From sequence record NC_028248.1: a stretch of DNA of 64,000 nucleotides; one strand, given 5' to 3'. A program made the translations under genes and the position numbers. Every line of letters starts with the position of its first letter. The first letter of the stretch is position 1. Under the pieces are notes generated by a model, which worked only from the letters and a program-made list of their open reading frames with translations, was not told the origin of the DNA and did no database searches. Shown in pieces: positions 60,093 to 63,876 of the stretch. The stretch is from Escherichia phage slur16.

Positions 60093-61214
60093 TTAGATAA
60101 AACGCTTGAACATAGAAGGTGATGAGATTGATGGAATCACACAAGGAAGTGCTACTTCCTCTTTCTCCAGGAAATTAATAGCAGAAGCTACACAGTCAGC
60201 CCAGTCGTCTTTTCTGTTAAATGTTGATCTTTCCCCGTTGAATTTTTCAAGTTCAGTCAGAAATGCTTCCAGAGTATCAGGATGGAAACTGGATTTTACA
60301 ATCCTCACCATTCCTTGTTGGGCAAGATTGGCAAAAGGTGAGAACCTTGTCAGTTTAGATTTGTTGGAAGGCATTGGGTCTTCTTCAACCCTAAACCCTT
60401 CGGCAAGCAAGGATCTGGAGGAGGTTAAGAACTCACTCTTACCTGCCTGACCGGGGTCCACAGAGAATACGATTATACAATCATCACCATCAAACTGCGC
60501 CTGTTTCCTGATGATCACATCTCGTTCACCAGCCTTTTTACAGAACTTGCCTTCTAGACCTGTGGAATACCTCCCGTCATCCACGTTCTCAGGACAATAA
60601 TCACCGGACAGGTAATAAAAGCCGTCGCTATCTTTACTTACCTTAACACTGGCGGTAAAGTCAGGAAATTTATTACCGGAAGTTCTCTCGGTTCCTGCCT
60701 TATCCCATGCCCTGCAAGATACTGATCCAAGGGGTACTCTATCGGCATCACGAAGGAAAGATCTTTGAAAATAGTTTGCGCCCTCAGGCTTTGCAAACCA
60801 GTTACCATGAAGAAGCTGAGCTTTTTCCAGTTCCGGCAGACCTTCAAGGAAAGCAAGGTATTCTGGGTTGTCTCTTAAGCAAACAGGATTATCGAATATT
60901 GTTGCGCCTATAAACGAGAATGACAACGGTCTTGGCTTGATCTCCACACCAAGTCCGTTAACCGTGGTGTATTTCTCTATCAACTCTTCTTTAGAGTCCC
61001 CCCAGATAAATTCACCGTCGCGTCGGATAAAATATCTTTTCTTACCGCATTTCTCCGGATCTGGATACCCTTCATCGTCCAACCACCACCTAACCAGTTT
61101 GGCAAGCATGTGTTCTGAATCGGGGTTACAGCTGATAACCATTCTTGATGGATACTTTGACTGAGATCGCAGACGAGACATCAGATAGTCTATCTGCTCC
61201 CATTCGAATTGTGT
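60093..61214 (-). CDS. terL: terminase large subunit, C-terminal (nuclease) part; putative exon 2
   Basis: ORF 60093..61181 extended upstream in-frame to 61214 (TQFEWEQIDYLMSRLRS...). Continues the ATPase domain and carries the nuclease region (IIVFSVDPGQAGKSE...). Confidence 0.6.
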   Translation of the reverse strand, partial: TQFEWEQIDYLMSRLRSQSKYPSRMVISCNPDSEHMLAKLVRWWLDDEGYPDPEKCGKKRYFIRRDGEFIWGDSKEELIEKYTTVNGLGVEIKPRPLSFSFIGATIFDNPVCLRDNPEYLAFLEGLPELEKAQLLHGNWFAKPEGANYFQRSFLRDADRVPLGSVSCRAWDKAGTERTSGNKFPDFTASVKVSKDSDGFYYLSGDYCPENVDDGRYSTGLEGKFCKKAGERDVIIRKQAQFDGDDCIIVFSVDPGQAGKSEFLTSSRSLLAEGFRVEEDPMPSNKSKLTRFSPFANLAQQGMVRIVKSSFHPDTLEAFLTELEKFNGERSTFNRKDDWADCVASAINFLEKEEVALPCVIPSISSPSMFKRFI

Positions 61215-61533
61215 CGTTTATGTTCGGGCAAGGTCGCTAGTCTTGCCCCGCCATTTTCAGGCAGCTGCATGTCTCCATGCAGACCAGACTATATCTTATA
61301 AGCGACAACAACCGCTTATCCTCCCGTTTCGAATCGCTTGATTCTACGTCTTTCGACTAGTCGTTGAACGTTCATCCTCTCGGATGCTTCGCTGCGGATT
61401 ATCTAAATTAACACACTGTTACCATACCTTCGATCTCTCTTCGAAGCCTCTATCATGTTACCATGACAGGTTGGTGGTATTAATAGTAAAGATTTCCCCG
61501 CAATTAGGGAGGTTTTACGAGAGCTACAAATTA
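61215..61533 (-). other. ~319-nt non-coding intervening sequence splitting terL; candidate self-splicing group I intron
   Basis: Exon 1 frame hits TAA right after the Walker B codons (..TGC TTC GAT GAG GGT | TAA); no ORF in the insert; hairpin-rich sequence. Proposed 5' splice after U at 61534 and 3' splice after G at 61215 restore the frame (..VCFDEG|TQFEWEQ..). Confidence 0.5.
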
Positions 61534-61959
61534 ACCCTCATCGAAGCAAACCATGGTGTACTCAAGCCCTTGATGGTTAAGCTTATCTTGTACATACTCC
61601 ATGTGGCAGTATTTTACAACAGCTCCCTTTTTGCTTCTATCCCACTTGCCAGTGTTCGGATCAAACCGTGGAAAAATGAACTTATGATCCTTCTCTCTGA
61701 ACTTTGGCTTAATGTTTTCAGGCAGATCACTATAAATAGCTACCGCTTTAGGCCATAGTCCACCCTCACCTTCCAACTGCGGGGTTGTTCTTCGGAACAT
61801 AACCACAGAGCTGTGGGGGTCATCAATAATTTTAAGTGGCATCAATTGCAAGAGGAACGACTTGCCAGACCCTGCGGCACCGCCGATTACCAAAATATCT
61901 GCATCGTTTTCGAGGATCATCTTCTGCTTTTCAGAACACGGTCCGTAAATCTTAGACAT
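61534..61959 (-). CDS. terL: terminase large subunit, N-terminal ATPase part; putative exon 1
   Basis: Walker A VIGGAAGSGKSFL and Walker B TMVCFDE, with a stop immediately after the DE(G). Confidence 0.65.
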
Positions 61960-63062: not shown

Positions 63063-63139
63063 TGGTCTCCACGGAGTGATTCGAACACTCGACCTCCTGA
63101 TCCCAAATCAGGCGCTCTACCAAGCTGAGCTACGCGGAG
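63063..63139 (-). tRNA. tRNA-Pro (anticodon UGG)
   Basis: Hand-folded cloverleaf: acceptor CTCCGCG/CGTGGAG, anticodon loop TTTGGGA, T-loop TTCGAAT, encoded CCA. Confidence 0.8.
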
Positions 63140-63150
63140 TATTTATTATT

Positions 63151-63225
63151 TGGTGGCCCTGGGTGGAATTGAACCACCGTCTGGCGATTATGAGTCGCTT
63201 GCTTGAACCTTCCAGCTACAGGGCC
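63151..63225 (-). tRNA. tRNA-Met (anticodon CAU; elongator or Ile2-type not distinguished)
   Basis: Acceptor GGCCCTG/CAGGGCC, anticodon loop CTCATAA, T-arm GGTGG-TTCAATT-CCACC, encoded CCA. Confidence 0.75.
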
Positions 63226-63226
63226 A

Positions 63227-63302
63227 TGGTGCTGATGGCAGGACTTGAACCTGCAACCTATTGATTACAAATCAATTGCACTACCAATTGTGCTACATCA
63301 GC
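63227..63302 (-). tRNA. tRNA-Thr (anticodon UGU)
   Basis: Acceptor GCTGATG/CATCAGC, D-stem GCAC/GTGC, anticodon arm ATTGA-TTTGTAA-TCAAT, T-arm GCAGG-TTCAAGT-CCTGC, encoded CCA. Confidence 0.8.
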
Positions 63303-63308
63303 AAAAAA

Positions 63309-63407
63309 GGTGCTAGGTGATGGAATCGAACCACCTATGTATTCAACGACTACCTCGTCTATTTTCAGGATTAAAAATCCTCGCCCTTGCCAAAGGGCTT
63401 ACCTAGC
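63309..63407 (-). tRNA. atypical 99-nt tRNA-like gene (anticodon candidate UUU, oversized ~30-nt variable region)
   Basis: Perfect 7-bp acceptor GCTAGGT/ACCTAGC, D-arm GCCC-TTTGGCAA-GGGC, T-arm GGTGG-TTCGATT-CCATC; anticodon arm only 4 bp (AGGA/TCCT) around loop TTTTTAA; 30 nt between anticodon and T arms; 3' end ACC-U, so CCA not fully encoded. Confidence 0.45.
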
Positions 63408-63505
63408 TCAGTATGTTGACCATGTTGCTAGTCGGCGATGACGACTGTAACATTTGATAATCCGGTTCTGCTTCCGGCTTTCGCTTAATTACAAGGTCAA
63501 CAATA

Positions 63506-63596
63506 TGGCTGAGGGTAATGGAATCGAACCATCATCGAGTCATCCTCAACGGGACGGTTTTCAAGACCGCTTGAGCACCATTGCTCCCTACCCTCA
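63506..63596 (-). tRNA. tRNA-Ser (anticodon UGA), type II
   Basis: Acceptor TGAGGGT/ACCCTCA, anticodon arm GCGGT-CTTGAAA-ACCGT, ~19-nt variable arm, T-arm GATGG-TTCGATT-CCATT, encoded CCA; 91 nt. Confidence 0.75.
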
Positions 63597-63710
63597 TTTA
63601 TAAACAATACTGATAATGACACTGATTTTCGAGCAGTTAGTGACTAGTATAAACGACGATAAATATCAATGCCATTATCTGTATGATTTATGCATTTAAA
63701 ACTATAAATT

Positions 63711-63797
63711 TGGTGGGGAGTGGTGGAGTCGAACCACCCGAGTCGTAATGACAATAGATTTACAGTCTACACCGCTACCTCTACGGGATAACTCCCC
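63711..63797 (-). tRNA. tRNA-Tyr (anticodon GUA), type II
   Basis: Acceptor GGGGAGT/ACTCCCC, anticodon arm GTAGA-CTGTAAA-TCTAT, long variable arm, T-arm GGTGG-TTCGACT-CCACC, encoded CCA; 87 nt. Confidence 0.75.
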
Positions 63798-63801
63798 AAT
63801 T

Positions 63802-63876
63802 TGGCACCCCGTACTGGACTCGAACCAGTGTCAACGGCTTAGAAGGCCGCTGCTTTATCCACTAAGCTAACAGGGC
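63802..63876 (-). tRNA. tRNA-Arg (anticodon UCU)
   Basis: Acceptor GCCCTGT/ACGGGGT with two G-U pairs, anticodon arm GCGGC-CTTCTAA-GCCGT, T-arm ACTGG-TTCGAGT-CCAGT, encoded CCA. Confidence 0.7.

Follow-up and report, generated by a model that had tools for sequence, protein, structure and literature searches.

Large terminase gene of an rV5-like Escherichia phage interrupted by a putative ORF-less group I intron

The large terminase gene (terL) in the window, the 64-kb stretch of DNA analysed here, is interrupted just past the Walker B motif by an insert that, judging from its sequence, is almost certainly a group I intron, of subgroup IA type and without an ORF. The insert and its flank match the Rfam family RF00028 (Intron_gpI) from 61543 to 61265 on the minus strand, with a score of 84.3 bits (E 7.7e-22; gathering threshold 50); the alignment is complete (model positions 1-253 of 253), and it is the sole intron match that Rfam returns within the window. 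Over a region that includes terL, identity of the window is 100% to Escherichia phage slur12 and 99.9% to JohannBauhin, both members of Vequintavirus (rV5-like myophages). The intron is already known, having been described and annotated in rV5 and its relatives.

The interrupted reading frame and its intron-less counterparts

The 5' part of terL is a minus-strand ORF of 142 amino acids (61959..61531) that carries the Walker A sequence GGAAGSGKS and has the C-terminus ...MVCFDEG. Its frame reads GAT GAG GGT and then, directly afterwards, TAA at 61533-61531. The same frame reopens 319 nt further on in a second minus-strand ORF, which runs from an ATG at 61181 to a stop at 60093 and whose frame is open upstream as far as a TAA at 61220-61218. 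Within 61215..61533, the ORF list holds short antisense ORFs only, and no sense-strand ORF reaches 30 amino acids. The initial annotation had described a terminase frame that runs into TAA right after the Walker B glycine and an ORF-less insert of about 319 nt; sequence and coordinates confirm both, and the insert measures 319 nt exactly.

Exon 1 ends on a whole codon, so exon 2 begins at a codon boundary past the in-frame TAA at 61220-61218. Among the first such boundaries only 61214, which lies ahead of the conserved residues TQFEW, is preceded by a G (G61215). When the exons are joined after U61534 and after G61215, as had been proposed, they give a continuous terminase of 515 amino acids that reads ...VCFDEG/TQFEWEQIDYLMSRLRS... 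(the slash marks the junction). This protein matches the Pfam family Terminase_6N (E 6e-20) over residues 25-294, across the junction at residue 142, and also matches Terminase_6C (E 3e-6).

The proposed boundaries were compared with alleles that lack the insert. Exact excision of 61533..61215 leaves 1548 nt (61959..61534 plus 61214..60093), and the uninterrupted terL genes of bov10K2 and NHEP1 are likewise 1548 nt long and align without gaps to the spliced window gene, with nucleotide identities of 97.5% and about 95%, respectively, and a protein identity of 99.8%. Exon 1 is colinear with positions 1-426 of the intron-less alleles, its final U being the 5' splice-site U, and exon 2 opens with ACA CAA TTC. 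Both comparisons suggested in the initial annotation, colinearity of the spliced protein with intact terminases and a continuous gene of identical length in close relatives, thus came out in favour of the spliced reading. Sliding the junction by one base (GG/...C/GACA) is colinear too, but this placement was rejected; it breaks the rules of a U before the intron and a G as its last base, and the wobble pair in P1 picks U61534.

A search of a phage collection with the spliced terL yielded 119 related records. By a junction-spanning query, the insertion site (site 1) is empty in 66 of these and occupied by the intron in about 53 (45%). Homologs are consequently not two separate genes as a rule, an outcome that the initial annotation had named as evidence against splicing: the gene is continuous at this site in the 66 records.

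An alternative is that the terminase is truly split, with a 142-residue polypeptide carrying Walker A and Walker B assembling with one of about 362 residues, and that the spacer is merely intron-like non-coding DNA. The records of slur12 and several other phages do annotate two CDSs, and translation of the second ORF could begin at the ATG at 61181, but we consider this arrangement very improbable. The spacer matches a full ribozyme model (E 8e-22), and its removal restores the length of the uninterrupted alleles present in more than half of the related records. A start at 61181 would lose TQFEWEQIDYL, which is conserved in intact homologs, and by our reading of the sequence the sole GGAG upstream of this ATG lies about 15 nt off, a poor spacing.

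Group II introns, inteins, and ribosomal bypass are also known interruptions of phage genes, and one of these, for example a bypass like that of T4 gene 60, might cross the gap instead. We rate the chance of this as close to negligible. No group II family matches at E <=1 in Rfam between 60900 and 61800, and a group II intron would not fit into 319 nt. For an intein, the insert would have to be open and in frame, whereas the one in the window opens with TAA, contains a second in-frame TAA, and has none of the longer sense-strand ORFs sought. The only bypass known to us spans 50 nt, as against 319 nt here. The initial annotation had excluded an intein and a bypass on similar grounds, the lack of an ORF and the length of the insert, and we concur.

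In the neighbourhood of the gene, a tRNA cluster (Pro, Met, Thr, Ser, Tyr, Arg) occupies 63063-63876 on the minus strand and lies upstream of the genes for lysis and terminase. ARAGORN assigned a four-base anticodon to an odd tRNA-like element of 99 nt at 63309-63407, which scores 35.5 bits as a tRNA in Rfam; with introns allowed it is reported as an unconvincing tRNA-Gln with a 5-nt intron.

Predicted ribozyme fold and splicing pathway

The minimum-free-energy fold of the insert has a z-score of -4.4 and is more stable than all 100 shuffles, and this unguided fold recovers most of the helices drawn in Table 1. The elements of a conserved group I core, namely P3, P4, P6, P7, and P8 with the P3/P7 pseudoknot that would hold the guanosine-binding site, can all be drawn with standard pairs. 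In P1, which is invariant across five Vequintavirus copies, U61534 pairs with G61524, a wobble that marks the 5' splice site. A P10 helix with the 3' exon would comprise 3 bp at best, with a one-base offset, as read from the sequence. The initial annotation had proposed a group I intron with these two boundaries. The full-length RF00028 match, well over the curated threshold, the drawable P1-P9, and the exact colinearity with intact terL all support that proposal, and the U•G pair at the 5' site and the terminal G are found at the positions it named.

Table 1. Features of the interrupted terL gene and helices of the predicted intron structure
Feature	Position	Strand	Description	Basis
terL exon 1	61534..61959	minus	142 codons; N-terminal ATPase with Walker A and Walker B	ORF list, Pfam
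Putative group I intron	61215..61533	minus	319 nt, ORF-less; starts UAA (stop in the exon 1 frame), ends ...AAACG	Rfam, excision, fold
terL exon 2	60093..61214	minus	rest of ATPase and RNaseH-like nuclease domain; 373 codons plus stop	
P1	61517..61541	minus	5' exon AUGAGGGU plus intron UA, paired with internal guide sequence UAGCUCUCGU; 10 of 10 standard pairs	Rfam alignment, helix listing
Catalytic core	61287..61512	minus	all listed pairs standard	Rfam alignment, manual helix map
P3	61512-61507 / 61325-61320	minus	CCUCCC/GGGAGG	
P4	61502-61497 / 61398-61393	minus		Rfam alignment, manual map
P5	within 61287..61512	minus	three-part extension P5a/P5b/P5c, about 75 nt	
P6/P6a	within 61287..61512	minus		Rfam alignment, manual map
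P7 (pseudoknot)	61362-61358 / 61291-61287	minus	GACUA/UAGUC	
P7.1	61357-61348	minus	GUC-GAAA-GAC	
P7.2	61344-61331	minus	GAAUC-AAGC-GAUUC	
P8	61319-61298	minus	short closed stem; 7 bp, 8-nt loop	
P9	61282-61265	minus	GAGA loop; 3' domain (61215..61282)	
P9.1	61264-61248	minus	3' domain	
P9.2	61247-61227	minus	3' domain	
3' tail	ends 61215	minus	11 nt, GAACAUAAACG; terminal G at 61215	
Clustered synonymous sites	61534, 61212, 61209	minus	spliced terL 426, 429, 432	

The helices P7.1 and P7.2 are a hallmark of subgroup IA, the class to which the phage T4 introns belong, and both are present here, at intron positions 177-203, in the segment that separates P7 from the 3' strand of P3. T4 introns also have a P2 helix between P1 and P3, whereas the window intron has none: the Rfam alignment deletes the P2 positions, and the linker between P1 and P3 is just 4 to 6 nt (GUAAAA). 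The intron is an atypical, P2-less member of subgroup IA.

Base pairing was compared among six aligned sequences (n=6): the window copy, those of rV5, HMD-6, and EI-SP-GF, that of phiWec193 with its P8 ORF trimmed, and the phiKZ intron. The Aya copy, which differs in the 3' strand of P8, was left out. In this small sample, where all but one of the sequences share at least 95% identity and the window sequence was itself the source of the structure, standard pairs made up 97.9% of cells in the drawn structure versus 33-43% when the 3' partners were slid by 1-3 columns, and 11 pairs had changed on both sides with pairing kept, versus 0-2 in the slid controls. The compensatory changes, contributed by the sister copies and phiKZ, are located in P4, P5a, P5b, P6a, P7.2, P8, and P9.2; P7.2 of phiKZ is fully compensated (CACUC/GAGUG). 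Most core pairs show no variation among the six sequences, and P1, P7, and P9 are invariant, so that covariation says nothing on these three helices. MAFFT misregisters P6a, P7.1, and P8 of phiKZ in part, and some of the unpaired cells are alignment artefacts.

These data also bear on whether the intron might have decayed and no longer splice, leaving terL a pseudogene in the genome or in the assembly. The missing homing endonuclease ORF and P2 would fit such decay; against it, the core helices and both splice-site nucleotides are all intact, and where copies differ in P5a, P5b, and P8, the differences keep the pairing. terL is, moreover, essential for packaging, and the 319-nt form without an ORF persists, at 96-100% identity, in many viable, plaque-forming phages of independent isolation, including rV5, LL12, JohannBauhin, and naswa. 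We regard decay as highly unlikely.

For an intact intron, established group I chemistry suggests how the terL transcript would be processed. The pre-mRNA would fold into a ribozyme core of P3-P9, in which P7 would form the guanosine-binding site. An external guanosine would attack the phosphate after U61534, presented by P1 as a U•G wobble, and the freed 3'-OH of exon 1 would then attack after the terminal G61215. Ligation would join GAU GAG GGU to ACA CAA and yield a single 515-residue terminase; the predicted junction in the spliced RNA is GATGAGGGT/ACACAATTC, and the predicted junction peptide is ...CFDEGTQFEWEQ.... Unspliced RNA would give just a 142-residue fragment, because the intron opens with UAA. 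It is conceivable, if unlikely, that this UAA-ended ATPase fragment has a role of its own.

Distribution among relatives and the endonuclease-bearing form

Architectures of terL were counted in a systematic half-sample of the 119 related records (Table 2). Besides the site occupied in the window, the sampled genes use a second one (site 2), at spliced positions 740/744, which corresponds to about 60898-60901 of the window and is empty there. In rV5, site 2 holds a 979-nt group I intron that bears an HNH gene (1601-2582 of the rV5 sequence compared), and in phage A112b it holds an ORF-less group I intron of 268 nt that scores 87.5 bits (834-1060 of the A112b sequence compared).

Table 2. Architectures of terL in a systematic half-sample of the 119 related records
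terL span (nt)	Insertions	Records
1548	none	about 31
1867	319-nt intron alone	7
2431	883-nt form of the site 1 intron	11
2846	319-nt intron and 979-nt second intron (rV5)	2
3410	883-nt form and 979-nt second intron	3
2527	979-nt second intron alone	1
about 1815	about 267-nt insert at site 2	2

Eighteen of the records (MG0656xx, e.g., C15, A116, A147, and A112b) are labelled 'Campylobacter phage' with C. jejuni as host, yet across terL they share 97-98% identity with rV5-like phages of E. coli. These host labels look doubtful, and at least one of the records is flagged UNVERIFIED.

The 883-nt form, found in phiWec193, navn, the O157 typing phages 4 and 14, MaxBurger, and others, shares with the window intron its site and the core outside P8. 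The two differ in P8 itself: where the window copy has a short closed helix, the longer form has a different stem (GAAUGUGUAA/UUACACAUUC) and a loop with a 196-aa ORF of the endonuclease VII family (PF02945 Endonuclease_7, E 2e-21). The statement in the initial annotation that the insert is not a homing-endonuclease gene holds for the window, yet such a gene is carried in P8 by these sister copies.

The element is a selfish mobile intron. The window copy has no homing endonuclease ORF of its own in a peripheral loop and, because it lacks such a gene, cannot promote its own homing. It may instead spread by recombination, or by means of an endonuclease from a co-infecting, ORF-bearing relative; the enzyme of the ORF-bearing form could thus spread the ORF-less copy in trans. 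An occupied site would also shield terL from this endonuclease VII-family enzyme. We consider it unlikely that the ORF-less intron is more than a passive passenger and has a part in the competition among co-infecting rV5-like phages.

One observation that would agree with such a part is that the exon sequence around the site differs between the two kinds of allele. Across 52 nt of junction context, all 66 empty-site alleles carry at least 3 differences from the intron-bearing exon sequence, none matching it above 94%. Alleles that were read directly differ by synonymous substitutions at -1, +3, and +6, with GGT/ACA CAA in the presence of the intron and GGC ACG CA(A/G) without it; the base at -1 is T in 7 of 7 intron-bearing alleles and C in 3 of 3 empty ones. 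These clustered differences could reflect co-conversion, or they could be variants of the endonuclease target that resist cleavage.

Relation to known introns and significance

In the rV5 genome paper (Kropinski et al. 2013, PMC3606486), one section is entitled "Introns in terminase," and D. Shub is acknowledged for having located the intron. In the rV5 record (NC_011041), terL (ORF64ABC) is joined from three parts, and its second intron contains an HNH endonuclease. The first terL intron of rV5 corresponds to that of the window in gene, site (GAGGGT/.../ACACAA), and 319-nt length, with 96-100% identity and nearly the same Rfam score (84.9 bits versus 84.3). rV5 differs in its second, 979-nt terL intron with an HNH gene at about 740, a site that is empty in the window. 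The announcement of LL12 reports predicted introns that disrupt terL and the DNA polymerase gene (PMC6658697). terL is a two-part join in the record of JohannBauhin, and two separate CDSs, each named "Terminase-like family protein," appear in that of slur12. We found in the searchable literature no splicing experiment on this intron or on any E. coli rV5-like phage.

The introns of T4 td and nrdB and that of the phiKZ gp72 region have core motifs and architecture in common with the window intron, namely helices P7.1 and P7.2 between P7 and P3', AAGAUAUAGUC as the J8/7 sequence, and P9-P9.2. Identity to the window intron is 72% over 187 nt for phiKZ, 82% over 79 nt for the td introns (3' part), and 73% over 109 nt for the nrdB intron. 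The phiKZ intron scores 87.6 bits in Rfam, and its 3' tail (GAACAUAACG) is nearly that of the window. All of these introns lie in other host genes, and the P5a/b/c extension of about 75 nt is specific to the window intron. In phiKZ, the ORF just upstream of the intron core (PHIKZ072; 220-1170 of the sequence compared) has an end that resembles the DNA-binding tail of a homing endonuclease, and the hairpin that Rfam aligns as P1 may really be P2.

Introns in terminase genes have been described in other phages as well. In Pectobacterium phage CB7, a member of the same subfamily, splicing of a terL intron was demonstrated by RT-PCR (PMC7344957). That intron (384-1347 of the CB7 sequence compared) is of group I and bears an HNH gene; its insertion point, which follows GAT in Walker B, lies upstream of the site used in the window by 6 nt. 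With its HNH gene and its different 5' splice site, it was rejected as the same element; two different introns, in CB7 and in Vequintavirus, thus target nearly the same conserved sequence. The first terL intron of Bacillus phage phiAGATE is 69% identical to the window intron over 183 nt. A shared site was rejected here too, as the phiAGATE introns are inserted at unrelated positions in a terminase of another lineage. A terL group I intron in Lactobacillus phage LL-H is cited in the rV5 paper (PMC3606486), and terminase introns also occur in Bastillevirinae (PMC11878797).

The window intron leaves the general knowledge of group I introns unchanged. Its practical consequence is for annotation, which needs correction because slur12 and others list two CDSs: slur12 and many relatives are credited with two "terminase-like" or hypothetical proteins, whereas the real product, as predicted from sequence, would be one spliced terminase of 515 amino acids. 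For the genus, terL of Vequintavirus forms a natural series for the gain and loss of introns and homing endonucleases, with two sites that each occur empty, ORF-less, and endonuclease-bearing in phages that are about 97% identical.
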